A stretch of DNA of 64,000 nucleotides from Chitinophaga pinensis (lineage in GTDB: Bacteria > Bacteroidota > Bacteroidia > UKL13-3): NCBI GenBank assembly GCA_945861965.1, contig CAMAWM010000001.1:43565-107564 (forward strand), written 5' to 3'. Position 1 is the first letter of the stretch. Every line of letters begins with the position of its first letter. The position numbers and the translations under genes were made by a program. Of this stretch, positions 1 to 60,666 are shown in pieces. A model generated the notes under the pieces. That model was not told the DNA's origin. It worked only from the letters and a program-made list of their open reading frames with translations, and did no database searches.

Positions 1-2975
1 AGCAGAAAACTAGTAAGCTGAAACCTATTTCTTTTAATGCAGCTATTGATTTGAGAAACAATTTGAAGTATCTGCGTTATGCTGTTTTGCCTGTATTGGT
101 GTATGTTTTAATTTTAATTGTCTCGCCAAGTATGATTAGTGATAGCGGAGAAAGAATTATAAAATACAATCAAACATTTGCGGTAAATGCTCCTTTTAAT
201 TTTGAACTTAAAAATAAAATTCTTGAAGTTGATCAATTCAACGATTTTGAATTGAAAGTAAAATTATTTGGCAATGAAATTCCTGCCGATATTTTTTTAA
301 TGATAGATGGCAATGCATACAAAATGAAGAAAAATGACCTCTTGAATTTTTCATACACATTCAAAAATATTCAACACAATACTAAGTTCCAATTTTTTGC
401 AGATGAATTTTATAGCAAGGATTATTTGATTGAAGTTTTACCCAAACCATTGATGTTAAATTATCAAATTGTTTGTGATTATCCTGAATATACAGGCAAA
501 AAAGATGAAGTGCTAACTAGTCCAGGAGATGTTGTTGTACCTGCAGGAACAGCAATGAAATGGAAGTTTCTAACAAAACAAACCGAGCAGGTGATTTTGG
601 GTTTTGGAAATAAAATAGTGCAAGCCGAAAAAATTGACGATGCGAAATTTATCTTTTCTAAAAAAGTTTTTGAAAGCGAAAATTATTACATAAAAAATGT
701 AAACACAAAAGTTAAAAATAGCGATTCGATGCAATTTGTAATTTCTGTCATCGAAGACGCATATCCTGTTTTGACGGTGGATGAAAAATCGGATTCAATA
801 AGCAAAAAACAGTTTTATTTTATTGGCGATGCAAGCGATGATTATGGATTAACCAAACTTAATTTTAATTATAGATTTATTAAATCAGCAGATAAAATTA
901 AGACAGAAAAAGGAGTTCAACAAAAACAAATTTTGTTTGAAAAGCGCCAAAATCCGCAACGCTTTTATCACTACTTTAATTTGCATGAAATTAATTTACA
1001 AGAAGGAGATGAAATTGAATATTATTTTGAGTTGTGGGACAACGATGGCGTTCGTGGAGCTAAATCTATTCGATCTAAAACTTCGTTGTACAAAGCTCCA
1101 AGCATTAATGAACTAAAAGATGAAACCAATAAGAATAGTGAAATATATAAAAAAAATCTAAAAGAAACACTAAATGAAGCAAAGGAATTACAAAAGGAAT
1201 TGAAGGATCTTCAGCGAAAAATAAAGGAAAAAAATTCATTGACTTGGGAAGAGAAAAGAAAAGCAGAACAACTACTTCAGCGCGAAAAAGATTTAAATAA
1301 AAAGATGGATGAATTGCAAAAAGAGTTGAAGCTAAACAATCAAAAAGAGCAAGATTATAAGCAGCAAGAGGAAAGAATAGTTGAAAAACAAGCACAGTTA
1401 GAGAAAATGTACAAGGAAATAATGAATGATGAGATGAAGGAGTTGCTTAAGAAAATGGAAGACATGCTGAAGTTGCAAAACAAAGATTTATTGAAAAATG
1501 AAATGGAAAAACTGCAGCTTGAAAACAAAGATGTGGAGAAGGAATTGGATAGAATGTTGGAAATGTACAAGCAATTGGAACTTGAAAAAAAGCTTGAAGA
1601 CGTTAAAAACAATTTAGATAAATTATCAGAAAAACAAGAACAATTAGAAAAGAAAAATGATGACAACACTGCGAAAGAAACTGATTTGAAAACAGAGCAG
1701 GATAAGTTGAATAAAGAATTTGATGACATTAAAAAGGAGTTGAATGAAATAGAAAAACTGAATGAAAAATTAGAAGAAAAACAGGAATTGTCGGATACCA
1801 AAACGGATGAAAAGGAAATAGAGCAAGAGATGGAAAACAGCAGCAATGAACTTAGCAAAGGCAACAAGAAAAAAGCAAAACAGTCGCAAAAGAAAGCTGC
1901 AGAAAAAATGCAGCAGCTAAGCGAAAAAATGAAACAAAAAAGTTTGGAACAAGAGAAAGAGGAGCAAGAAGAAGATGTAAATGCTTTGCGAGAAATACTG
2001 GAAAATTTAGTTGAATTAAGTAAAGAGCAAGAAAATTTGATGCAGCGTTTTGGTGAGGTTAATAGCTATAGTCCGCAATTTGTTCAAATGGCACAAGAGC
2101 AAAAAAACCTAAAAGACAATGCAAAAATAATTGAAGATAGTTTGACAGCATTGAGCAAGCGTGTTGCAGAAATTAGATCATTTATAAACAAAGAAATGAC
2201 GGCAATGATTAATCACATGGATAAATCCAACAAAGGTTTTTCAGAGAGGAATATGCATCATACCAGAGTGGAACAACAAAGTGCAATGACCAATATGAAC
2301 AACCTAGCATTGATGTTGAGTGAAGCATTGAAAAAAATGCAACAGGATATGCAAAGTCAACAAAATTCGGACAAATCAGGAGATGGAAAAAGTAAAAAAA
2401 CTGGAAAAGGAAAGGGTGGAAAAAGCGGCAAGATGAGCATGAGCAAATTGAAAAAAATGCAAGAGGAAATGAATAAACAATTGCGCGAAGGGATGAATAA
2501 ACAAGAAGGAAAAGGACAAAAACAAGGTGAGAAAGGAATGGGAAGCGAATCGTTTGCACGAATGGCATCGCAACAAATGGCAATAAGACAAGCCATGCAA
2601 AAAATGTTGAGTGAGATGGGAGCAAAAGAAAAAGAAGGATTAGGTGGAAACAAACAACTTGGCGATTTGCAAAAACAAATGGAACAATCGGAAAAAGAAT
2701 TATTCAATAAAAAACTTACAACGGAAACATTGATGCGGCAACAACAAATTTTGACTCGTTTATTGGAAAGTGAAAAAGCCGAAAAAAAGCAGGAACAAGA
2801 TACAAAACGCGAAGCAGAACAAGCGCAAGAAAAAGAACGAATTGCGCCACCGCCAAATTTTGATAAATACCTGCAACAAAAAAATAAAGAAACAGAATTG
2901 TTAAGAACCGTACCTGCAGAAATGAAACCATATTTCAAACAAAAAGCAAACGAATATTTAAAAGGAATTCAATAA
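1..2975 (+). CDS. Large K/E-rich coiled-coil membrane-associated protein; 5' end lies outside the window. Possibly DUF4175-like, but this is uncertain.
   Basis: The reading frame is open from the window start; the first in-frame start shown by the ORF track is a TTG at 51. A hydrophobic segment (AVLPVLVYVLILIVS) lies near the N-terminus. A ~330-aa globular region is followed by ~500 aa of heptad-like K/E/L/Q-rich sequence, then M/Q/N-rich and G/K-rich low-complexity tracts. Confidence 0.5.
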   Translation, partial: QKTSKLKPISFNAAIDLRNNLKYLRYAVLPVLVYVLILIVSPSMISDSGERIIKYNQTFAVNAPFNFELKNKILEVDQFNDFELKVKLFGNEIPADIFLMIDGNAYKMKKNDLLNFSYTFKNIQHNTKFQFFADEFYSKDYLIEVLPKPLMLNYQIVCDYPEYTGKKDEVLTSPGDVVVPAGTAMKWKFLTKQTEQVILGFGNKIVQAEKIDDAKFIFSKKVFESENYYIKNVNTKVKNSDSMQFVISVIEDAYPVLTVDEKSDSISKKQFYFIGDASDDYGLTKLNFNYRFIKSADKIKTEKGVQQKQILFEKRQNPQRFYHYFNLHEINLQEGDEIEYYFELWDNDGVRGAKSIRSKTSLYKAPSINELKDETNKNSEIYKKNLKETLNEAKELQKELKDLQRKIKEKNSLTWEEKRKAEQLLQREKDLNKKMDELQKELKLNNQKEQDYKQQEERIVEKQAQLEKMYKEIMNDEMKELLKKMEDMLKLQNKDLLKNEMEKLQLENKDVEKELDRMLEMYKQLELEKKLEDVKNNLDKLSEKQEQLEKKNDDNTAKETDLKTEQDKLNKEFDDIKKELNEIEKLNEKLEEKQELSDTKTDEKEIEQEMENSSNELSKGNKKKAKQSQKKAAEKMQQLSEKMKQKSLEQEKEEQEEDVNALREILENLVELSKEQENLMQRFGEVNSYSPQFVQMAQEQKNLKDNAKIIEDSLTALSKRVAEIRSFINKEMTAMINHMDKSNKGFSERNMHHTRVEQQSAMTNMNNLALMLSEALKKMQQDMQSQQNSDKSGDGKSKKTGKGKGGKSGKMSMSKLKKMQEEMNKQLREGMNKQEGKGQKQGEKGMGSESFARMASQQMAIRQAMQKMLSEMGAKEKEGLGGNKQLGDLQKQMEQSEKELFNKKLTTETLMRQQQILTRLLESEKAEKKQEQDTKREAEQAQEKERIAPPPNFDKYLQQKNKETELLRTVPAEMKPYFKQKANEYLKGIQ

Positions 2976-2984
2976 TTCTAATCA

Positions 2985-3341
2985 ATGCCTAAACCAAAAA
3001 TCAATAAAACTGAGTACACTTTTTTTGATGACGTGTACGATGTTGTGCGGTTAATTCCTAATGGCAGAGTTACAAGTTATGGTGCCATTGCAAAATATTT
3101 GGGAAGTGCCCAAAGCAGTCGATTGGTTGGATATGCAATGAATGCGTCTGGTAAGGAAATGCCAGAGGTGCCAGCGCACCGAGTTGTTAATAGAAACGGT
3201 TTGTTAACGGGCAAACATTTTTTTAATAACGAAAATGAAATGCAAAGATTATTGGAATTGGAAGGTGTGAAAGTGAAAGAGGACAAAATTGCAGATTTCA
3301 AATTGCATTTTTGGGATCCAATTTTAGAACTTGATTTGTAA
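2985..3341 (+). CDS. Alkyltransferase-like (ATL) protein, MGMT/Ogt DNA-binding fold without the catalytic cysteine
   Basis: 118 aa. It carries an MGMT C-terminal-domain signature (NGRVTSYGAIAKYLG ... PAHRVVNRNG). The canonical PCHRV active-site Cys is replaced by Ala, as in ATL/YbaZ-type proteins. Confidence 0.7.
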   Translation: MPKPKINKTEYTFFDDVYDVVRLIPNGRVTSYGAIAKYLGSAQSSRLVGYAMNASGKEMPEVPAHRVVNRNGLLTGKHFFNNENEMQRLLELEGVKVKEDKIADFKLHFWDPILELDL

Positions 3342-3399
3342 ATAGACCACAGTATTTTTAAATTTAAGGTAAAGTTTTTAGCTAATTTGTGAGCAATAA

Positions 3400-5838
3400 A
3401 TGAAAATAATTTTTAACTGTCTTTTTTTAATTAGCATAAATTTATTATGTAATAATTTAGCTTTTTCTCAAGGCGAAGAGGATAGTTTGCAATTGTTGTT
3501 GCCATTCTCAAAAGACGAACAAAGGGTTGATATTTTAAATGCACTTTCTTTTTCGCAGAATGAAAACGACAGCTCAAAAAAAATTGATTATGCAAAACAG
3601 GCATTATCCATTTCAAATAAGCTCAATTATACTAAAGGATTAGCACAAGCGCACATTGCATTTGGAATAGTTGAAAATAACCGACAGCGATATAATTTAG
3701 CAAGAACAGAATTGTTGCACGGTTTGTTTTTGGCTTTAAAATCAACTGATTTGGCCACAATTGGAATAGCTTACGAACATTTAGGAAACCTTTATTTTTC
3801 TACAACTGATTACACAAAATCATTGCGCTATTATTCAGGTGCATTAAAAATTGCAGACCAAAGATTTGATATAAAAAATAGTGCTAATGTAACTTTTGAG
3901 ATAGGTGCACTTTATTTTGAATTGCAAGATTTGAATAAGGCAACAAGCTATTTTTTGCGTTCGTATAAATTATTCAAAAAATTAAAAAATGAATTAATTG
4001 CTGCAAGAATTGAAAACAAACTGGCAATTATTTATCAATCGAAAGGATACGATTTGAACGCGTTGCATCATTACATGCAATGTATAGAAGTATTTAAAAA
4101 GTTTGCAAGTTCAAGCGATATTTCATCGGTTCGAAATAATATTGCAACAATTTATTTAAAACGCGAACAGCCACAAAAAGCAGTAAAAATTCTTGCAGAA
4201 GCATATAAAATGGATGATGCTGTGAAAGATTATAAATCGGCAACAATTTCAGCAACAAATTTATCGTATGCATTTCTACAACTTCGAAAATTTGATTCTG
4301 CGATTTATTATGGTATTACGGCTTTTGAGATTGCAAAAAACAATAAATTTAAAAAGGAATATGCCTTTGCGGCATTTGCGTTAAATTCAGTTTGCAAACT
4401 AAAAGGAGACAATCAGAAGGCATTGTTTTATAAAAACGAATACGAGAAAATTAACAATGAATTGCTAGTAGAAAAAAAGTTGAATTTAGCAAAGCTTCAA
4501 GTAAAAGATGAAGCAGAAAAAAAAGCAGAGCCAATTGATTTATTGAAGAATGAAGATGCTAAATTGAACGAAATTAGTGGCAAACAAAATGCACCATTTA
4601 TACAATCAAATGGCAGTTTGTATTCTGTAATTGGATTGCTAATTGTTGTTGTTATTTCGCTGTTGTTTTTTATTTTTATTTCAAATAAAAAACGAAAAAA
4701 ACAGTTCAAGTCAGACTCAAATCAACTAGGTAGTATTAATAAATTGAATAGCGAAATTAGAACTCCGCTTAATTCGATTTTAGGTATGAGCAACTTGGCT
4801 TCACACAGTAAAAATATTCACGAGCTTCGCCAATATCTTTTAGGGATTAACCAATCGGGAGATGACTTGTTATTTGTTATAAATAATTTCAATTTGTATG
4901 TTCAAATTACAACAAAAAACGATAAATTAATTTCAACACAATTTGAATTTACAGAAAGCTTACGATTGCTTTTTAAATCCTTTGAAATGCAATGCAAACA
5001 GAAAGGAATTTTGTTCAATTCTGCACTTGCAAATGATATTCCGTTGATTGTAAATGGAGACAAAATAAAATTGCTGGCCATCATTCAAAACTTGTTAAAC
5101 AATGCATTGAAATTTTCTGAAAAAGGAGAAGTTAAAGTAGATGTAAAAACCATACAAATATCAAAAACGAAAGTTCATAAAATTCAAATAAAAGTAAGTG
5201 ATGAAGGAAAAGGAATTGATAAAAAAGTTGCAAATGAAAACAAGTTTGGAATAGGATTATTTATTGTAAAACATTTTGCCGAAAAGATGAATGGTGATTT
5301 TGAAATTAAAAATAATGAAACTGGATGTTCAGCTATTGTTAGTTTTGAGTTAAAAGCTATCACAGAAAATATTATTGATTCAATCGAAAAAAAATCAGCA
5401 GCAACTAATTCTTCATCCAAATCAATGTATCGGAAGCAAATTTTGTTGGTTGAAAGCAATCTATTAAATCAGAAAGTGTTGTTGCAGATTTTAAGAAATC
5501 ACGGATATATTGTAACAACAGCCAACAATGGAAAAGAGGCTTTGAGTTGCCTTCGACAATACAATTTTGATGTTATACTTATGGAAATTCAAACACCCAT
5601 TATGGATGGATTTGTTGCAACAAAACACATTAGAAACGATAAAGAATTTGAATGCGATAGCAATTTGCCGATTGTTGCCATGTCATCAAGTAACGACCCA
5701 TTAGAAATGCAGCGATGTTTTGAATTTGGTTTCAACGAGTATCTTATTAAACCGATAAATAAAGAAGTGCTTTTGAAAAAATTAGATGCATTGTGCACTA
5801 ATTATCAATCGTATTTATCAGAAACTAAAGGCAGATAA
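3400..5838 (+). CDS. TPR-repeat hybrid sensor histidine kinase / response regulator with atypical phospho-acceptor residues
   Basis: Signal peptide, ~380 aa of TPR-like repeats and one TM segment (LLIVVVISLLFFIFI). The HisKA-like box reads SEIRTPLNSILGM. The HATPase has an N-box (LLNNALKFS), a G1 box (DEGKG) and a G2 box (GIGLF). The C-terminal receiver reads LLVESN ... DVILMEIQTPIMDG ... YLIKP. Confidence 0.8.
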   Translation: MKIIFNCLFLISINLLCNNLAFSQGEEDSLQLLLPFSKDEQRVDILNALSFSQNENDSSKKIDYAKQALSISNKLNYTKGLAQAHIAFGIVENNRQRYNLARTELLHGLFLALKSTDLATIGIAYEHLGNLYFSTTDYTKSLRYYSGALKIADQRFDIKNSANVTFEIGALYFELQDLNKATSYFLRSYKLFKKLKNELIAARIENKLAIIYQSKGYDLNALHHYMQCIEVFKKFASSSDISSVRNNIATIYLKREQPQKAVKILAEAYKMDDAVKDYKSATISATNLSYAFLQLRKFDSAIYYGITAFEIAKNNKFKKEYAFAAFALNSVCKLKGDNQKALFYKNEYEKINNELLVEKKLNLAKLQVKDEAEKKAEPIDLLKNEDAKLNEISGKQNAPFIQSNGSLYSVIGLLIVVVISLLFFIFISNKKRKKQFKSDSNQLGSINKLNSEIRTPLNSILGMSNLASHSKNIHELRQYLLGINQSGDDLLFVINNFNLYVQITTKNDKLISTQFEFTESLRLLFKSFEMQCKQKGILFNSALANDIPLIVNGDKIKLLAIIQNLLNNALKFSEKGEVKVDVKTIQISKTKVHKIQIKVSDEGKGIDKKVANENKFGIGLFIVKHFAEKMNGDFEIKNNETGCSAIVSFELKAITENIIDSIEKKSAATNSSSKSMYRKQILLVESNLLNQKVLLQILRNHGYIVTTANNGKEALSCLRQYNFDVILMEIQTPIMDGFVATKHIRNDKEFECDSNLPIVAMSSSNDPLEMQRCFEFGFNEYLIKPINKEVLLKKLDALCTNYQSYLSETKGR

Positions 5839-5911
5839 AAAAAATCAGTAATTTGTAAATCGTAATTTATCTGCTTATTTCTGCACCTTAAAAATAGTAT
5901 CACAAAAAAAT

Positions 5912-6784
5912 ATGTCAGTTTTAGTCGATAAAAATTCAAAAGTAATTGTTCAAGGATTTACTGGCGGAGAAGGAACTTTTCATTCCCAGCAAATGATTGA
6001 ATACGGAACCAATATTGTAGGTGGAGTAACGCCAGGAAAAGGCGGACAACTACATTTAGAACGGCCAGTATTTAATACCGTTGCAGATGCTGTAAAATCA
6101 ACATCAGCAAATGTTTCAATCATATTTGTTCCGCCTGCATTTGCTGCAGATGCAATAATGGAAGCAGCCGATGCAGGAATCGAAGTTATCGTCTGCATTA
6201 CAGAAGGCATTCCGGTTAAAGATATGATACCAGTTAAAGAATATATCAAATCAAAAAATTGCACTTTAATTGGACCAAACTGCCCCGGAGTTATTACCCC
6301 TGGCCAAGCAAAGGTTGGAATTATGCCAGGATTTGTTTTTAAACAAGGAAGAATAGGAATTGTTTCTAAATCAGGAACACTTACATACGAAGCGGCCGAT
6401 CAGGTGGTGAAAGCTGGCTTAGGTATTTCTACCGCAATTGGAATTGGAGGAGATCCAATAATTGGAACACCTACAAAAGATGCTGTTGAGTTACTGATGA
6501 ACGATACGGAAACCGATGCAATTGTTATGATTGGTGAGATTGGAGGAAGCTATGAAGCAGATGCTGCACGTTGGATAAAAGCAAATGGAAATAAGAAGCC
6601 AGTTGTTGGATTTATTGCTGGACAAACCGCTCCTGTTGGGCGAAGAATGGGACATGCTGGCGCAATAATTGGTGGAAAAGACGATACAGCTGCAGCCAAA
6701 AAACAAATTATGGCTGAGTGCGGAATATTTGTGGTGGAATCACCTGCTGATATTGGAGAAAAAATAAAAGAAGTATTGGAATAA
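5912..6784 (+). CDS. sucD: Succinate--CoA ligase [ADP-forming] subunit alpha
   Basis: 290 aa with a SucD-typical N-terminus ([35 protein letters not shown]) and a CoA-binding/ligase fold throughout. Confidence 0.93.
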
Positions 6785-6838
6785 AAATTCTATCTGAAGA
6801 TTTTATATAGTTTTAATTAGGTTTGCAGTAATAACAAT

Positions 6839-8125
6839 TTGAAAATAAATATGTCAGAAAATGTAATTAAGCATAGCTCAGAAAATCCATTCCAATCTAT
6901 GATTTCTAGATTTGATAAAGCAGCTAAACTAATAGGATTGGATGAGAGCGATTACAATGTTTTAAAAGCCCCTCAAAAAACGGTGATTGTTAATATTCCA
7001 GTAACAATGGATGATGGAAAAGTTCGCGTGTTTGAAGGATTTCGTGTGGTGCACAATGCAAATCTTGGACCTTCAAAAGGTGGAATTCGTTATTCGATGG
7101 ATGTTAATTTAGATGAAGTAAAAGCACTTGCAGCTTGGATGACATGGAAATGTGCAGTTGTCGGAATTCCATATGGAGGTGGAAAAGGTGGAATTAAGTG
7201 CGATCCACGCAGTATGAGCAAAGGCGAATTAGAAAGATTGACTCGATCATACACAGATTTAATGTTTAATGTTTTTGGTCCTGACAAAGACATTCCAGCC
7301 CCGGATATGGGAACCGGCCAACAAGAAATGGCTTGGATAATGGATGAATATTCTAAGTTGATTGGCTATTCAAGCCCAGCAGTGGTAACGGGAAAACCAA
7401 TCGTTTTAGGAGGTTCTTTGGGTAGGGTTGAAGCAACAGGTAGAGGTGTCATGGTTTCAACGCGTTCTGCATTGGGAAAACTTGGAATTAGTCCTGTTGG
7501 ATCAACTTGTGCAGTTCAGGGATTTGGAAACGTAGGATCAATCTCAGCAAAGCTTTTAGCCATGCAAGGATTGAAGGTGCTAGCTATTTCTGATATTTCG
7601 GGAGCGTATTATAATCCAAACGGATTAGATGCCGAAGAAGCAATTGCTTATAGAGACAGCAACAATGGAACTTTAGAGGGTTATAAAGGCGGAGAAAAAA
7701 TTACGAATAACGAGTTGTTAGAATTAGATGTAACTGTTCTGGTTCCTGCTGCTATGGAAGATCAAATTACAGAAGAAAATGCTGAACGAATAAAAGCAAA
7801 ATTGATAGTTGAAGGTGCAAACGGACCAACCAGCGCAAGTGCAGACGATATTCTGAATAAAAAAGGAATTATGATTGTACCTGATATTTTGGCAAATGCC
7901 GGAGGGGTTACAGTAAGTTATTTTGAGTGGGTACAAAATCGTTTGGGATATTTTTGGACTGAAGAAAGAGTTTATCGCAGAGCAGATAGAGTAATGAAAA
8001 CTGCTTTTGAATCTGTGTATGCTGCTTCAAAAGAATACAATTGTAGTTTAAGAATTGCTGCTTATGCGGTAGCTATAAAAAAAGTAGCAGAAGTAGAAAA
8101 ACTTAGAGGAAAATTTGGAGTATAA
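6839..8125 (+). CDS. gdhA: Glu/Leu/Phe/Val-family glutamate dehydrogenase
   Basis: 428 aa with the catalytic glycine-rich motif GIPYGGGKGGI and a Rossmann segment (GFGNVGS). Confidence 0.88.
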   Translation: MKINMSENVIKHSSENPFQSMISRFDKAAKLIGLDESDYNVLKAPQKTVIVNIPVTMDDGKVRVFEGFRVVHNANLGPSKGGIRYSMDVNLDEVKALAAWMTWKCAVVGIPYGGGKGGIKCDPRSMSKGELERLTRSYTDLMFNVFGPDKDIPAPDMGTGQQEMAWIMDEYSKLIGYSSPAVVTGKPIVLGGSLGRVEATGRGVMVSTRSALGKLGISPVGSTCAVQGFGNVGSISAKLLAMQGLKVLAISDISGAYYNPNGLDAEEAIAYRDSNNGTLEGYKGGEKITNNELLELDVTVLVPAAMEDQITEENAERIKAKLIVEGANGPTSASADDILNKKGIMIVPDILANAGGVTVSYFEWVQNRLGYFWTEERVYRRADRVMKTAFESVYAASKEYNCSLRIAAYAVAIKKVAEVEKLRGKFGV

Positions 8126-8142
8126 AATTTAAAAAACAAGAA

Positions 8143-8793
8143 ATGATTCATCGCGAAGGCAAAGCCACCATACTAATTACTTTGATTGTATTATTTGCAA
8201 TCAATTATTCTGTTAGTTTTTGTCAAATCGAGTGGATACAAAATATTTCAACTGCAGTTTCAATCTTATTTTTAATAATTATTTTGCAGTTTTTTCGCAA
8301 TCCATCTGTTCATACAGAGCAAAACGAAAACCATATTATAAGTCCAGCCGATGGAAAAATTGTTGTAATTGAAGAAGTAGAAGAAACGGAATTTTTTAAA
8401 GATAAACGCATTCAAATTTCCGTTTTTATGTCGCCATTTAATGTGCATGTAAACCGCAATCCAATTTCAGGAATTGTAAAATATTTTAAATACCATCGCG
8501 GACTTTATTTAGTTGCGTGGCATCCAAAATCTTCGACAGAAAACGAACGCACAAGCTCTGTTATTGAATCAAAAAATGGAACTGCAATACTTTTCCGTCA
8601 AATAGCCGGAGCATTGGCAAAACGAATAGTTTCGTATTTGCACGAAGGGCAAAATGTACAACAAGGTGCCGAAATGGGATTTATTAAATTCGGTTCCAGA
8701 GTGGATGTTTTTTTGCCATTAAATTCCAAAATAAATGTTTCGCTTAATCAAAAAGTAAAAGGCGGAAAAACAGTTTTGGCAGAATTGAATTAA
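8143..8793 (+). CDS. psd: Phosphatidylserine decarboxylase family proenzyme (short archaeal/Bacteroidetes type)
   Basis: 216 aa with a membrane anchor and an FGSR self-cleavage-type motif (IKFGSRVDVF) near the C-terminus. Confidence 0.75.
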   Translation: MIHREGKATILITLIVLFAINYSVSFCQIEWIQNISTAVSILFLIIILQFFRNPSVHTEQNENHIISPADGKIVVIEEVEETEFFKDKRIQISVFMSPFNVHVNRNPISGIVKYFKYHRGLYLVAWHPKSSTENERTSSVIESKNGTAILFRQIAGALAKRIVSYLHEGQNVQQGAEMGFIKFGSRVDVFLPLNSKINVSLNQKVKGGKTVLAELN

Positions 8794-9064
8794 TTAACTC
8801 ATTCGCTATTCCCTAATATATTGTGAGTATTTATTTATCAAATGTTCAGGACGTTATACATTAATTATATTTTTTTACCAACCACTTAATACACATTGAA
8901 GTCATTACCAATATAAAACTAAATAACTTTGCTTTTCTTTCATACTTTTCCGGAATTCTAATAACGAATATATTAAGTAAAAATTAAGTATTAAAATGTT
9001 GTCGTACATTTACTAATTTACTATAATTGCTTCTTTAGTTATTTCAAAAAAACATTAAATTACC

Positions 9065-12000
9065 ATGAAACAGAATAAACTAATTTCAAATTTTTTTTTC
9101 TTGTTTCTATTCGTAATTTCTTTTCAAACTATAAAAGCACAACGCTGGGGCGATTATACTCTTTACAGCGCGCTTAATAGTACCAGCACCTATTTATTAG
9201 ATACAGCAGGAAATGTATTTAGAACTTACAATACAAATGGTGCGCCAACTGGAGCACAATGTTATTTAATGCCTGGTGGAATTTTGTATCGCGCAGCAAC
9301 AACAAATAATTCATTCAATGGAAGTGGAACTACTGGAAGATTTCAAAGACTTAGTGCTAATGGAACTGTTAATTGGGATGTAACCTATTCGTCAAGCACC
9401 TATTGTGCACACAATGATTTTCATGTAATGCCAAATGGAAATGTTTTAATTATGGCTTATGAATTAAGATCGGCAAGTGAGGTAGTTGCAGCCGGAAGCT
9501 CAGTTAATCACGCAATGTGGATGGAGAGAATTATTGAAGTACAGCCAACTGGAGGAGGAGGAAATATCGTTTGGCAATGGAGTTCGTTTAATCATCTTTC
9601 ACAAAATTACGATTCAACAAAAGCGAATTATTTACCTCTCATTTGGGCGAAACCTGAATTGTTAGATATTAATTTTAATAATAATGCAAATACATCTGAT
9701 TGGTTACATTTTACAGGTATTGATTACAATGCTGAATTGGATCAAATAGTTGTTAGTTCTCAAAATATGAATGAATTTTATGTAATTGATCATAGCACAA
9801 CAACGGCTGTAGCTGCAACACATTCGGGTGGTAATTCGGGAAAAGGAGGAGATATTCTTTACAGATGGGGAAATCCTGCAGCCTATTCAGCAGGCAATAA
9901 CAGCAATCGAATTTTTAATGGAATAAACGATGCACATTGGGTTCCTAAAAATTGTCCAAGAGGAGGATATTTAGTAGGATTTAACAACAATACAACAGCA
10001 ACTGCATCATCCATTGATATGGCAAATCCTCCTTATTTTGGATACAATTATTCATTGAGTGGAATAGCATATTCTCCTTCAACATATAGTTATCGTAGAT
10101 TGTGTAATGGTAAAACAAATTCTTTAGGAATTTCACAACAATTACCCAACGGAAACACATTGATTACAATGTCTAATTTAGGCGTTATTTACGAAATAGA
10201 TTCGAATGGCACCACTGTTTGGTCAAAAACCATAACGGGAGGAACAGGAGTTCCAAATGTTCCACAAGCATTACGTTATGCTGCATGTTATGTAAATGGT
10301 ACTCCAACTATAACAGCAACAACAAACAAACCCTCGATTTGTGCAGGAACAATTGTTAGTTTAGGTGCAAATCCAGCTGGTGGTTCAAATTATACTTACG
10401 CATGGAAATCATCGCCAGCTGGTTTAATTTCAACCTCACAAAATCCAGTAGTGAATCCTACAGTTACTACAACATATACAGTAACTGTTACTAGTGGTTT
10501 ATGTACGGCTTCTTCATCAGTAACAGTTACAGTCATACCTCAACCAGTAGTCAATGTGTTATCAAATCCAACAACTATTTGTTTAGGAACTTCCTCTCAA
10601 TTATCAGCCACCATGTCGGGTACAGGAACCTATACCTATTCATGGGTTGCAACACCAGGGACCTTTACTTCAAACAATCAATATCCTATTGTTTCACCTT
10701 CAGTAAATACAACGTATTTGGTTACAGCAACAGGAACAACAAATGGTTGCACTGATACTGGAATTGCTTTGGTTAATGTTGGTGCAAATCCAGTTGTTAC
10801 TATCAATAATAGCAATCCAACAATATGTGTTGGAAATTCTACTCGCTTAACGGCAACAGCAAGTGGAGGAGGAAATGTTTATACGTATTCATGGACTTCA
10901 TTACCCGTTGGATTTACTTCAACTGCACCCAATCCGTTGGTAACACCAACTGGAACTACTATTTATACAGTCAAAGTTAAAAGCGCTTTATGTACTGATT
11001 CAACTTATCAAAGTATTACTGTTACTGTAAATACGTATCCAACTGTAGTTGGAAGTTCAGATTCAAATAATTTTTGTGCAGGTGGATCAACTCAATTACG
11101 TAGCATAGCAAGTGGAGGAGATTCAACTTATACTTATTCATGGACTTCAAATCCAACAGGATTTACATCAACACTTCAGAATCCAATTGTTACACCAACA
11201 ACAAGCACAATATATATTATTCGAGTTACTAGTGGTGGATGCACATCAGCTCCATATAATGTTGCTGTTACGGTTAAAAGAATTCCTTCATTTAGTATTT
11301 CAACAACAACGCCTACTATTTGTTATGGTGCATCAGCTCAATTAAATATTACAATAGTTGGAGATACACCATTTGTTTATAATTGGTCGTCAAATCCATC
11401 TGGGTTTTCATCAAATTTAAAAAACCCAATAGTATCTCCTTTAGTAAATACAGTTTATTCGGTTTTAGTTACAAGTGGATTAAATTGTTCAGCTACATCA
11501 AGTATTACGATTAATATTAAACCGAGACCAACAGTAACTGCAAGTGCAACTTCAACTCTTATTTGTTCTGGTGGATTAGCAAGATTAAATGCTGAAGTAA
11601 CTGGTGATGCACCTTATACATATTCTTGGACTTCCATACCAGCGGGATTCACTTCTACTATTTCCAATCCATTTGTAAACCCAATTGTAAATACAAGCTA
11701 TAAAGTTGTTGTTACAAGCGGTGGATGTACAGATACAGCTTCAAATACAGTTTCTATTAATTTAATAAATTTGACGGTAAATGCTACAGCAAATAATACG
11801 AATATTTGTCCGGGAACGAGTACATCATTGAATGCTTCGCCAAGTGGTGGTTCAATTTACTCATACAATTGGAGATCTGTTCCACTAGGATTTAATTCTA
11901 CTCAACAAAATCCAAATATCAATCCTGCAATTACAAGAACATATTTTGTTAGAGTAACAAGTGTAGGATGTAGCGATACTGCAACCTCATCTGTTACTGT

Positions 12001-13216
12001 AAATGTCAAATCATTGCCATCTGTTAGTGCATCAGCGAGTAGTAATTCTATTTGTAGTGGATCTTCCTCAACATTAAATGCAACAGTTATTGGCGATACG
12101 CCTTATACCTATTTATGGTATTCAATTCCAGCAGGATTTACATCTAGTATTCAAAATCCAACGGTTACTCCAACAGCAAACACTGTGTACAGAGTTATTG
12201 TAAGAAATGCGGGTTGCAACGATACAGCTGGAGCAAGTATAGCAATAACTGTTACTTCTGCACCAACTGTTACAGCCGTTGTTACTTCTAATATTATTTG
12301 TGCCGGATCATCAACACAATTAAATGCAATACCTAGTGGTGGTAATGGTGGATATTCTTATATTTGGTATTCAAGTCCAGGAGGCTTTACTTCTACACTT
12401 CAAAATCCGACTGTAAGTCCAATGCTTTCTTCTACTTATACGGTTATCGTAACAAGCAATAATTGTACTGGAACTTCAAATGTAAGTGTTACTGTAAATG
12501 CAATTCCATACGTTACAGCAGTATCCGAATTTAATCCGCTTTGTATTGGATCCTCAACACAATTGAATGCGTTATCGCCATTTCAAGATTCAAGCGCTTA
12601 TAGCTACTTGTGGTCGTCTATTCCATCAGGATTTACATCGTCTTTAAAAAGTCCGATTGTTGCACCAAGTATTCCAACAACATACAATGTCATTGTAAAT
12701 AATAATGGATGTGTGGCATCGTCTGGTGTTTATATTACCATTGCTCAATTACCTCCAACCCCAACTATTTCTCAAACTGGCAATATGCTTATATCAAGTG
12801 CAATTAATGGCAATCAATGGTATTTTGGAACTACATTAATTTCAAACGCAACTTCTCAAACCTATTCGCCAAGTATAAATGGAAAATATTCAGTTCAAGT
12901 TACTGATAACAATAAATGCAACTCTCCAATGTCAGCAGAACATCAATTTACCAGTGTTGGCGTCAACGATATTTTGAGTAATAATAATGTGAAAATTTAT
13001 CCCAATCCTAGCAACGGAATTTTGAATATTGAAAGCGATGTTTTGAAAAACACTAACTTCAGTATTGTTGTTTTTGATGCAATGGGAAAATGTGTTTATA
13101 CATTTAAAAATACATCAACAATAAATCTATCTGATTTAAGAGACGGCTTATATTCCGTTACCATTAAGTTAGAAAACGGAAGCACATACAATAAAAATAT
13201 TTTGTTGTATAGATAA
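9065..13216 (+). CDS. Giant secreted T9SS cargo protein: ASST-like beta-propeller N-domain, ten tandem ~80-aa Ig-like repeats and a Por_Secre_tail C-terminal sorting domain
   Basis: Signal peptide ending ...FQTIKAQ. The N-terminal ~400 aa resemble the arylsulfotransferase (ASST) family (HNDFHVMPNGNVLIM, WLHFTGIDYNAELDQIVVSSQNMNEFYVIDHSTT). The C-terminal ~80 aa match the T9SS type-A CTD (KIYPNPSNGILNIE ... DLRDGLYSVTIKLENG). Confidence 0.8.
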   Translation: MKQNKLISNFFFLFLFVISFQTIKAQRWGDYTLYSALNSTSTYLLDTAGNVFRTYNTNGAPTGAQCYLMPGGILYRAATTNNSFNGSGTTGRFQRLSANGTVNWDVTYSSSTYCAHNDFHVMPNGNVLIMAYELRSASEVVAAGSSVNHAMWMERIIEVQPTGGGGNIVWQWSSFNHLSQNYDSTKANYLPLIWAKPELLDINFNNNANTSDWLHFTGIDYNAELDQIVVSSQNMNEFYVIDHSTTTAVAATHSGGNSGKGGDILYRWGNPAAYSAGNNSNRIFNGINDAHWVPKNCPRGGYLVGFNNNTTATASSIDMANPPYFGYNYSLSGIAYSPSTYSYRRLCNGKTNSLGISQQLPNGNTLITMSNLGVIYEIDSNGTTVWSKTITGGTGVPNVPQALRYAACYVNGTPTITATTNKPSICAGTIVSLGANPAGGSNYTYAWKSSPAGLISTSQNPVVNPTVTTTYTVTVTSGLCTASSSVTVTVIPQPVVNVLSNPTTICLGTSSQLSATMSGTGTYTYSWVATPGTFTSNNQYPIVSPSVNTTYLVTATGTTNGCTDTGIALVNVGANPVVTINNSNPTICVGNSTRLTATASGGGNVYTYSWTSLPVGFTSTAPNPLVTPTGTTIYTVKVKSALCTDSTYQSITVTVNTYPTVVGSSDSNNFCAGGSTQLRSIASGGDSTYTYSWTSNPTGFTSTLQNPIVTPTTSTIYIIRVTSGGCTSAPYNVAVTVKRIPSFSISTTTPTICYGASAQLNITIVGDTPFVYNWSSNPSGFSSNLKNPIVSPLVNTVYSVLVTSGLNCSATSSITINIKPRPTVTASATSTLICSGGLARLNAEVTGDAPYTYSWTSIPAGFTSTISNPFVNPIVNTSYKVVVTSGGCTDTASNTVSINLINLTVNATANNTNICPGTSTSLNASPSGGSIYSYNWRSVPLGFNSTQQNPNINPAITRTYFVRVTSVGCSDTATSSVTVNVKSLPSVSASASSNSICSGSSSTLNATVIGDTPYTYLWYSIPAGFTSSIQNPTVTPTANTVYRVIVRNAGCNDTAGASIAITVTSAPTVTAVVTSNIICAGSSTQLNAIPSGGNGGYSYIWYSSPGGFTSTLQNPTVSPMLSSTYTVIVTSNNCTGTSNVSVTVNAIPYVTAVSEFNPLCIGSSTQLNALSPFQDSSAYSYLWSSIPSGFTSSLKSPIVAPSIPTTYNVIVNNNGCVASSGVYITIAQLPPTPTISQTGNMLISSAINGNQWYFGTTLISNATSQTYSPSINGKYSVQVTDNNKCNSPMSAEHQFTSVGVNDILSNNNVKIYPNPSNGILNIESDVLKNTNFSIVVFDAMGKCVYTFKNTSTINLSDLRDGLYSVTIKLENGSTYNKNILLYR
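10300..12760 (+). repeat. Ten tandem in-frame coding repeats (period ~240 nt, about 78-82 aa) inside the adhesin gene
   Basis: Each unit contains ICxGxSxxLxA ... SGG..YTYSW.S.P.GFTS...NP.V.P...T.Y.V.VTS..C; the ICxG motif recurs at 10337, 10577, 10823 and so on. The repeats are diverged at the nucleotide level and resemble SprB/PKD-like beta-sandwich repeats. Confidence 0.8.
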
Positions 13217-60592: not shown

Positions 60593-60666
60593 TCCTTGGT
60601 AGCTCAGCTGGTTAGAGCACATGACTGTTAATCATGGGGTCGCTGGTTCGAGCCCAGCCCAGGGAG
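60593..60666 (+). tRNA. tRNA-Asn (anticodon GTT)
   Basis: 74-nt cloverleaf: acceptor stem tccttgg/ccaggga, D-arm gctc-agctggtta-gagc, anticodon arm catga-ctGTTaa-tcatg, 5-nt variable loop, T-arm gctgg-ttcgagc-ccagc. CCA is not encoded. Confidence 0.85.

Follow-up and report, generated by a model that had tools for sequence, protein, structure and literature searches.

Architecture of the gene

Here we examined a gene encoding a histidine-kinase-like protein in a stretch of 64,000 nucleotides from Chitinophaga pinensis (contig CAMAWM010000001.1), which we call the window throughout. The gene is one uninterrupted open reading frame (ORF) with an ATG start that encodes 812 amino acids (Table 1), and an identical protein occurs in public assemblies. 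Judged by alignment with its relatives and with solved structures, the protein has kept the folds of a hybrid histidine kinase and has lost every catalytic centre, with S451 at the position of the phospho-accepting His, the ATP lid, the F-box and part of the G2 box gone, S686 in place of the Mg-binding Asp and E729 in place of the phospho-accepting Asp.

Pfam searches of the protein identified three TPR_12 matches at its N-terminal side, followed by HisKA (residues 452-504; 30.2 bits against a cut-off of 26.9), HATPase_c (553-650; 53.9 bits) and Response_reg (681-795; 75.8 bits). The NCBIfam matches were all below threshold and pointed to the hybrid kinases TorS, BarA, LuxQ and ArcB and to FimS. 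In and just after the N-terminal segment, at the end of which a signal peptide would be cleaved, M1, K2 and the residues D28 to F36 are unchanged across five close orthologues. A coiled-coil-like linker extends from the TPR region to approximately residue 400, and a basic stretch (NKKRKK) stands just C-terminal of the transmembrane (TM) helix. A signal peptide, only one TM helix and a run of basic residues past it together predict a TPR domain in the periplasm, with the kinase-like and receiver-like regions in the cytoplasm.

The AlphaFold2 (AF2) model of residues 430-812 was of high confidence (mean pLDDT 90.4, pTM 0.80) and retained the two helices (model residues 2-40 and 44-75) of the domain for dimerization and histidine phosphotransfer (DHp), the sandwich of the catalytic and ATP-binding (CA) domain and the (beta-alpha)5 receiver, with confidence dipping to a pLDDT of 76-85 at the lid remnant alone. 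The top Foldseek matches in the PDB were ShkA, RetS, GacS and DivL, which are generic histidine kinase (HK) folds and of which two are classic non-kinase HKs. The Pfam scores, the AF2 model and the Foldseek matches to HK structures all identified a DHp hairpin and an alpha/beta CA fold.

The only ORF on the minus strand within the gene encodes 91 amino acids. A scan of the whole window against Rfam gave no match inside the gene, and a sigma-70 scan of positions 2900-6000 found promoter-like sites at no higher frequency than in shuffled sequences. In the same interval there are five terminator-like sites, every one of them intragenic and on the minus strand.

Table 1. Positions in the window of the kinase-like gene, its domains and key residues, and of the divergent block around it
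Feature	Position	Strand	Evidence
Divergent block attributed to recombination, from the 3' part of DNA_binding_1 over the kinase gene and sucD to the 5' end of gdh	3000..7000		strain comparison
Whole gene, TPR hybrid histidine-kinase-like protein, 812 aa	3400..5838 (including stop codon)	+	ORF, Pfam
Signal-peptide-like hydrophobic N-terminus, aa 1-24 (...NNLAFSQ), followed by DSLxxLLPF motif	3400..3471	+	hydropathy
TPR sensor region, aa ~54-304, TPR_12 x3 / TPR_MalT-like	3559..4311	+	Pfam
Single TM helix, aa 406-428	4615..4683	+	Kyte-Doolittle maxima
DHp / HisKA domain, aa 446-515, phosphatase-type motif E452-x-x-T455 kept	4735..4944	+	Pfam, AF2 helices
S451 (AGC) at phospho-His position	4750..4752	+	profile and structure-based alignments
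CA / HATPase_c domain, aa 516-655	4945..5364	+	Pfam, AF2 model
Segment from the G1 box through what remains of G2, aa 601-621, DEGKGIDKKVANENKFGIGLF; here lies the 17-residue lid/F-box deletion	5200..5262	+	
Receiver-fold domain (pseudo-receiver), aa 679-800	5434..5799	+	Pfam, (beta-alpha)5 in AF2 model
E685-S686 acidic pair (GAA AGC); second, Mg-binding Asp replaced	5452..5457	+	alignments
E729 (GAA) at phospho-Asp position, end of beta3	5584..5586	+	alignments
S762 (T/S position) kept; S763 at T+1	5683..5688	+	alignments
K784, receiver Lys, kept	5749..5751	+	alignments

Substitution of the phospho-acceptors and loss of the ATP lid

A reading of the DNA made from its letters alone, called here the sequence-only reading, had placed a Ser at the phospho-His position of the H-box, leaving open a shift in the alignment that a profile comparison would settle. 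In the canonical sister of the protein (called P0003, see below) the HisKA match covers residues 448-504 and profile positions 2-58, with the phospho-accepting H457 at profile position 11. The match of the window protein begins with E452 at profile position 12, and S451 is therefore the residue at the position of the His. Alignment with solved structures by phmmer fixed the same register, the segment 'lnSEIRTPLN' of the window protein being paired with 'vsHEIRTPMN' in 7p8e and with 'lsHEFRTPLN' in 6qrj (ShkA), so that the H-box position holds a Ser and not a His. The codon at this position is AGC in the window, AAT (Asn) in the second allele of the gene, called P0002, and CAT or CAC (His) in the canonical orthologues.

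The other candidate acceptors that we considered had to be rejected. In place of H474, the His of the NIHELR motif that the sequence-only reading had offered as the possible true acceptor, the three nearest orthologues have T, N and N, and in place of H469 orthologues have E. In the receiver, D724 and D736 are both N in P0002. A conserved alternative acceptor, either His or Asp, thus does not exist in the aligned sequences.

In the case of the receiver, the residues had been identified correctly as Glu at the phospho-Asp position and Ser at the second acidic position, with the T/S and Lys positions kept. Solved structures align 'FMDIQMP' or 'ILMDVQMP' to 'ILMEIQTP' of the window protein and 'LVVDDN', 'LLAEDN' or 'LLVEDN' to its 'LLVESN'. 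Position 729 is Asp in every one of the 21 other sequences compared, from the family and from outgroups. The Mg-binding position is Asp in 18 of the 21 relatives, Asn (AAT) in P0002 and Ser in the window, and E685 is kept. The receiver therefore lacks the phospho-Asp and the Mg-binding acidic pair and holds the T/S and Lys residues. The residue next to the T/S position (T+1, S763) is Ser in both alleles and Ala in 20 of the 21 relatives; this position is known to influence access to the active site of the receiver. The domain falls within the published definition of a pseudo-receiver (PMC12632262), as it matches Response_reg with 75.8 bits and has lost both D and DD2. According to the definition of Collins and Childers, as far as it is quoted in PMC12632262, a pseudo-histidine kinase is an HK-like protein lacking at least one of ATP binding, autophosphorylation and phosphodonor activity, and on sequence criteria the window protein, having neither the His nor the lid, belongs here as well.

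The ATP-binding domain is not intact, contrary to what the sequence-only reading had supposed. The N box (NLLNNALKF, with N564 and N568) and the G1 box (D601-E-G-K-G, of the form DxGxG) are kept, whereas the F-box, the ATP lid and the first glycine of G2 are lost, so that among the features of an active HisKA kinase only the N box and G1 are found and the His, the F-box with the lid, and G2 are not. The interval between G1 and G2 consists of the ten residues DKKVANENKF only and, by comparison with P0003 (…TDKELKNAFRGITGRNRSEQSKNYGGFGVGL), 17 residues are gone from the window protein, the F box among them. We determined the spacing between G1 and G2 in 245 kinases in which the N, G1 and G2 boxes could all be located: it amounts to 24 residues in 210 of them and to between 18 and 27 in all others outside the clade of the window protein, and a spacing of 10 is found only in the 13 sequences of that clade. 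The G2 remnant reads K-F-G-I-G-L and does not conform to GxGxGL, its first Gly (the G615 equivalent), kept in 20 of 21 relatives, having become K in the window protein and N in P0002. In the AF2 model the fold of the domain is kept, the lid being gone.

The codons of the alleles give a hint on the order of these changes. At the His site the series runs from CAT/CAC in canonical orthologues through AAT in P0002 to AGC in the window, and at the Mg-binding Asp site from GAT/GAC through AAT to AGC, which suggests that each of the two sites may have taken a route via Asn to Ser. The phospho-Asp codon changed from GAT/GAC to GAA in both alleles. As regards conservation among orthologues, which the sequence-only reading had proposed to compare, the Glu is thus common to both alleles and the Ser is not, being Asn in P0002, while the canonical orthologues keep the His and the Asp. 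The view that His-Asp phosphorelay is no longer how the protein works gains strength from the alignments, as the lid, the F-box, the Mg-binding Asp and the first G2 Gly have been lost too, and we regard it as very likely that such a protein would be no phosphorelay enzyme. The published base rates of these losses are low, 0.9% for a missing His among HisKA domains and 2.0% for a missing Asp among receivers (PMC12632262), and the joint loss of His and Asp throughout the clade, with the lid deletion, is not to be read as chance. Among pseudo-receivers Glu is the commonest replacement of the Asp, and Asn is the commonest residue at DD2; many response regulators, although not all of them, become partly active when the Asp is a Glu (PMC12632262). 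By analogy with these, it is plausible that E729 acts as a phosphomimic, as had been proposed.

Relatives and history of the losses

A search of a collection of 5.8 billion proteins yielded four close clusters with 99, 62, 48 and 38% identity to the window protein, after which identity drops to approximately 25%. Six more full-length clusters of the family (P0131 to P0136) were found in a profile search of 1.84 billion representatives, and scans of genomes and metagenomes contributed the loci L006 and L018-L024. The best match in the scan of GTDB representatives was a 38%-identical orthologue in a metagenome-assembled genome (MAG) of a 'Bacteroidia bacterium'. The clade of the window protein comprises 13 sequences and two alleles, those of the window and P0002, which are 62% identical. 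Members of the 90% cluster of the window (nine sequences) have Ser at the His position, the acidic pair ES and Glu at the Asp position; those of the P0002 cluster (three sequences) have Asn, EN and Glu, respectively. In both clusters the lid measures 11 residues, counted from the last Gly of G1 to the first conserved Gly of G2. The His, the acidic pair ED and the Asp are all present in P0003, P0004/L006/L021, P0131/L019/L023 and P0133/L020/L022, the lids of which, counted in the same way, have 21-28 residues including the F box. The lesions are therefore present in 13 out of 13 sequences of the clade, and none of them in P0003 or in the nine positional orthologues of clade B.

Wherever flanking sequence was available, members of the family lie directly upstream of sucD, except P0003. 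Most of them have a DNA_binding_1 (MGMT-like) gene on their upstream side, in some cases together with a CMD gene; the exceptions are L018, without a DNA_binding_1 match, and P0132, with a biotin/lipoyl-domain gene. This common locus ([DNA_binding_1-CMD-]HK-sucD) identifies the family members as positional orthologues and, because canonical orthologues occupy the same locus, the lesions of the window clade are derived losses. In a bootstrapped neighbour-joining (NJ) tree the family was supported by 100%, the grouping of the window with P0002 by 100% and that of both with P0003 by 96%, so the nearest relative of the clade that lost its catalytic centres is a fully canonical kinase.

Four further lineages of the family lack the His. 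P0134 (with the motif ELRVP) and L018 have Gln at this position, and since they are 67% identical and both carry it, the Gln must be stable; P0132 has Ser, with QH replacing the ED acidic pair; P0135 has Lys in an EIKKP motif and has lost the receiver Lys; and P0136 has Arg (RELKSA) and no HisKA match whatever. At the orthologous loci L036, L037, L039 and L018 the His is replaced (by S, R, K and Q) and the receiver Asp is kept. Loss of the Asp, the Mg-binding Asp and the lid on top of the His is found in the window clade only. In total, five of approximately ten sampled lineages have lost the His, with S/N, Q, S, K and R as the replacements. Because these replacements differ, and because the members that bear the His keep all the other boxes, we infer that the His was probably lost several times independently in the gene adjacent to sucD. 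Equal-weight parsimony on the NJ tree favours a single early loss with two regains (3 versus 5 steps), which we consider unlikely; support for the placements of P0135 and P0136 in this tree is poor, and long-branch attraction may account for them.

These repeated losses raise the possibility, on which we would not insist, that the gene next to sucD is a hotspot for the conversion of kinases into pseudokinases, and that its core function (for example as a scaffold or an allosteric co-sensor) was never strictly dependent on phosphotransfer. If this were true, the family would offer natural intermediates between a two-component enzyme and a pseudoenzyme, with the window clade as the end state.

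Selective constraints after the losses

The ratio of non-synonymous to synonymous rates (dN/dS), estimated by the method of Nei and Gojobori between the two alleles without catalytic centres (window versus P0002), is 0.23 in the TPR region, 0.14 in DHp, 0.26 in CA and 0.10 in the receiver. In the linkers it reaches 0.61 (TM-proximal) and 0.97 (between CA and the receiver). The receiver is the best-conserved region, with 71% identity between the alleles. The DHp, CA and receiver domains remain under purifying selection and, since this selection acted between alleles that had both lost their catalytic centres, the protein is still in use; the gene is very probably functional and no pseudogene. 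Synonymous divergence (dS) in the kinase-like gene is approximately 1.07, similar to that of sucD in the same block (dS 0.93, dN/dS 0.04), from which it follows that the divergence of the alleles is old and that the gene has been moderately constrained throughout.

Tajima relative-rate tests against the canonical sister P0003, for which six outgroups were used, revealed no acceleration in DHp (for example 8 versus 7 changes) or in CA (18 versus 16). The TPR region showed between approximately 1.5 and 3.5 times more change than P0003 (for example 57 versus 22) and the receiver between approximately 1.4 and 5 times more (for example 20 versus 5). Ten changes in the receiver, including D729E and A763S, are common to both alleles and were therefore fixed before these diverged. 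This pattern fits a receiver that would have been remodelled and then constrained anew.

Proposed mode of action and alternative explanations

Taking the losses, the fold and the selective constraints together, we propose, with a probability of roughly 0.62, that the protein is a pseudo-histidine-kinase fused to a pseudo-receiver that signals via protein contacts and without phosphotransfer. As neither autophosphorylation nor phosphate relay is to be expected from it, its output would have to come about by contact with other proteins. The TPR domain would sense a periplasmic signal, which would pass via the single TM helix to the helical bundle of DHp. The conserved surfaces of DHp, CA and the receiver would then contact a two-component partner whose gene lies elsewhere in the genome and which may be either a kinase, in a DHp-DHp heteromer of the RetS-GacS type, or a response regulator, as in DivL and DivK. 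The Glu-bearing receiver may be held in a fixed state that is independent of phosphorylation and possibly 'on-like'. That the output consists in binding a specific partner, for which we rely on analogy with these systems, is a tentative proposal.

Several points weigh against this proposal. Purifying selection shows that the protein is used and is silent on the mechanism. When all ORFs of the window of at least 70 amino acids were searched by phmmer with canonical DHp-CA, receiver and histidine phosphotransfer (Hpt) queries, the only match was the protein itself, so that no other HisKA/HATPase, receiver or Hpt protein is encoded in the 64 kb. A sigma-54 activator located 8.7 kb upstream had to be discarded as a partner, since it starts at its AAA+ domain and has no receiver. 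The AF2 model is that of a monomer, and heteromerisation is beyond its reach; moreover, the host belongs to an uncultured MAG lineage. Finally, because the N box Asn and the G1 Asp are retained, the window protein may still bind some nucleotide.

The explanation that survives best next to this one is that of a transmitter acting as a phosphatase only, in which DHp would dephosphorylate a partner receiver in trans under the control of the TPR sensor. The E/D-x-x-T/N motif of HisKA transmitter phosphatases is intact (S-E452-I-R-T455-P), E452, R454, T455 and P456 are invariant across five close orthologues, and the dN/dS of DHp is the second lowest of all the regions. The conserved His, which the window protein cannot contribute, is debated as a requirement: it has been reported as non-essential for the phosphatase activity of HisKA proteins (PMC12632262), whereas in HK853 the H260A mutant was diminished in this activity and an HxxxT mechanism was proposed (PMC5727384). 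The HK region of RetS dephosphorylates the GacS receiver (PMC8498467), and in PsmA, for which phosphatase activity is judged to be absent, the E/DxxT/N motif is lost (PMC12963549). On the other hand, the receiver of the window protein has no Asp to be dephosphorylated, the ExxT motif may be kept for a helix kink or for structure, and the Thr has been lost in other members without the His (ELRVP in P0134, EIKKP in P0135 and ELKSA in P0136), which implies that phosphatase activity is no common function of the His-less forms. Because the His aids the phosphatase chemistry of HisKA proteins and the Thr is lost in these relatives, we consider a phosphatase-only role rather unlikely.

It is very unlikely that the gene is a decaying relic, that is, a kinase gene recently inactivated and drifting toward a pseudogene. 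Three catalytic centres were indeed lost together, the His position differs between the alleles (S versus N) as would be expected of an unconstrained site, and the TPR region and the receiver carry approximately 2-4 times more substitutions than in the canonical sister. However, 13 sequence variants from many assemblies all have an uninterrupted ORF, the rate of change in DHp and CA does not exceed that in the active sister, AF2 gives a confident fold and, at a dS of approximately 1.1, the alleles retain dN/dS values of 0.10-0.26 in the folded domains, with 0.6-1.0 in the linkers only.

Phosphotransfer through non-canonical acceptors, such as H474 or H469, Ser451 serving in the manner of a serine kinase, or another Asp of the receiver, is scarcely credible. 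The N box and G1 are kept, H469 and H474 lie within the DHp of the window allele, and some plant HK-like proteins show Ser/Thr kinase activity. Yet H474, H469, D724 and D736 vary in orthologues and S451 is N in P0002, while the lid, the F-box and the first G2 Gly are gone or replaced and the receiver has no Mg-binding Asp. A sequencing or assembly artefact, by which the substitutions and the short lid would be errors in one metagenome contig, comes to mind for a metagenome-assembled source and a locus inside a mosaic region, but is practically excluded because the same residues and lid length recur in the 9 and 3 members of the two clusters, in independent NCBI, ENA and Logan assemblies from different samples with contigs of up to 131 kb, and because the S451 codon AGC is at least two bases away from any His codon.

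Comparison with known systems

The proposal of a pseudo-histidine-kinase fused to a pseudo-receiver has precedents, from which the window protein differs in each case. RetS of Pseudomonas aeruginosa is likewise a membrane sensor with a periplasmic domain, fused receivers and an HK region incapable of ATP binding and autophosphorylation; without binding ATP it controls GacS by heterodimerising through DHp-DHp contacts and by transmitter phosphatase activity (PMC8498467). In both sequence and fold, the HK region of RetS ranks among the best matches of the window protein, although their identity is only about 22%, the generic level for HKs. RetS keeps the H-box His and has two receivers, of which one accepts phosphate, and its sensor is not of the TPR type; the window protein has a single receiver, a TPR sensor and no His, and there is no GacS-like gene in the 64-kb window, so that it cannot be assigned to the RetS type.

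PsmA of Streptomyces venezuelae is also hybrid-HK-like, with the H-box His and key ATP-binding residues lost. It is a pseudokinase that works by protein-protein interaction, independently of His and Asp, and the residue at the H position varies among its orthologues (PMC12963549). In contrast with the window protein, PsmA is cytoplasmic and much larger, binds DivIVA through its N-terminus, keeps the receiver Asp and has lost E/DxxT/N. The window protein, a membrane sensor of the TPR type, has lost the Asp and kept ExxT, and the homology of the two is limited to their common domains.

In the case of DivL of Caulobacter crescentus, the HisKA-type domain has Tyr instead of the phospho-His. Its DHp-CA module has been reused to sense the state of a response regulator, reversing the flow of the signal (PMC4211667), and the DivL structure 4q20 is matched by the model of the window protein with a TM-score of 0.78, normalised to the target. 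DivL, unlike the window protein, is alphaproteobacterial, receives its input through PAS domains and lacks a receiver; it binds DivK~P, and CckA is under its control.

Pseudo-receivers of the Glu type, such as those of plant pseudo-response regulators, Rim15p of Ascomycota and many bacterial proteins, share with the window protein the PF00072 fold, the replacement of D by Glu and that of DD2 by Asn or Ser (PMC12632262). They are of the response-regulator type or attached to eukaryotic kinases, whereas the window one is fused to a transmitter without catalytic centres. A HK and a pseudo-receiver in one chain are also found in ShkA and CikA, where the pseudo-receiver docks on the HisKA domain and regulates it (PMC12632262). 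ShkA (6qrj) is the top match of the window protein in both fold and sequence, but ShkA and CikA are active kinases with an intact His, and their pseudo-receivers bind ligands (c-di-GMP and quinone).

FimS of Porphyromonas gingivalis, also from Bacteroidota, resembles the window protein in its N-terminal TPR sensor, TM helix, HisKA and HATPase domains; it lacks a fused receiver and carries the annotation of a sensor histidine kinase. Its profile (NCBIfam NF053520) matched the window protein partially, over residues 150-651, with 89.3 bits, far under the cut-off of 600, and equivalence to FimS was ruled out. As architecture, partners or scores do not agree, the window protein stands outside the RetS, DivL, PsmA and FimS families.

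Pseudo-histidine kinases and pseudo-receivers are thus an already recognised category, of which few members have been studied and the mechanisms are largely unclear. What is unusual here is the loss of all catalytic centres by a single hybrid protein whose TPR sensor is predicted to be periplasmic, together with canonical positional orthologues that allow a direct comparison and, probably, more than one loss of the His within the orthologue group. One gene at one chromosomal position is found in three states: canonical (P0003 and clade B), lacking only the His (P0132, P0134/L018, P0135 and P0136) and devoid of every catalytic centre. Within the limits set by an uncultured organism and a category that is not new, this series is useful for asking what a transmitter-receiver module does without phosphochemistry, which of its surfaces stay conserved and whether the Glu at the Asp site matters.

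A mosaic locus and its neighbouring genes

The kinase gene lies inside a divergent block that occurs as two haplotypes with approximately 54-90% nucleotide identity, both of which carry a kinase without catalytic centres. Outside the block, the window is 100% identical at the nucleotide level to L001 or L031 over positions 1-3000 and 7200-8000, and approximately 100% identical to L002 or L031 over 8400-12200. Between the haplotypes, dS is 0.018 in gdh, compared with 1.07 in the kinase gene and 0.93 in sucD. Strains with the P0122 variant of the kinase (L032-L035) have a kinase gene that is approximately 99.6% identical and a gene at 9065-13216 that is 75-85% identical at the nucleotide level. 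From these comparisons, the divergent tracts look like imports by homologous recombination within one population, in which case both alleles would work in the same cellular background.

The gene at 9065-13216 encodes a surface protein of 1383 amino acids with Ig repeats, similarity to arylsulfotransferases and a tail of the type IX secretion system (T9SS). It forms a second hypervariable block and is approximately 100% identical in L031, a strain with the divergent kinase allele. Small divergent patches with 75-90% identity are located at 8100-8400, at the gdh/psd junction, and at 12400-12600, near the 3' end of the T9SS gene.

The upstream gene at 51-2975 runs off the start of the window and encodes 1123 amino acids on longer contigs. 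Its protein is very rich in Lys and Glu, coiled-coil-like and 100% identical between strains, and has no Pfam match; the low-complexity sequence yields several long spurious antisense ORFs. The sigma-54 activator mentioned above lies outside the window (L031:98-1333, approximately 8.7 kb upstream of the kinase gene) and is a protein of 411 amino acids that begins with AAA+, has no N-terminal receiver or sensor domain and continues through a linker of about 100 residues into HTH_8. Neighbouring genes in the window carry T9SS Por_Secre_tail and CHU_C domains, which supports an assignment to Bacteroidota, and a tRNA gene at 60593-60666 is the only Rfam match in the window.

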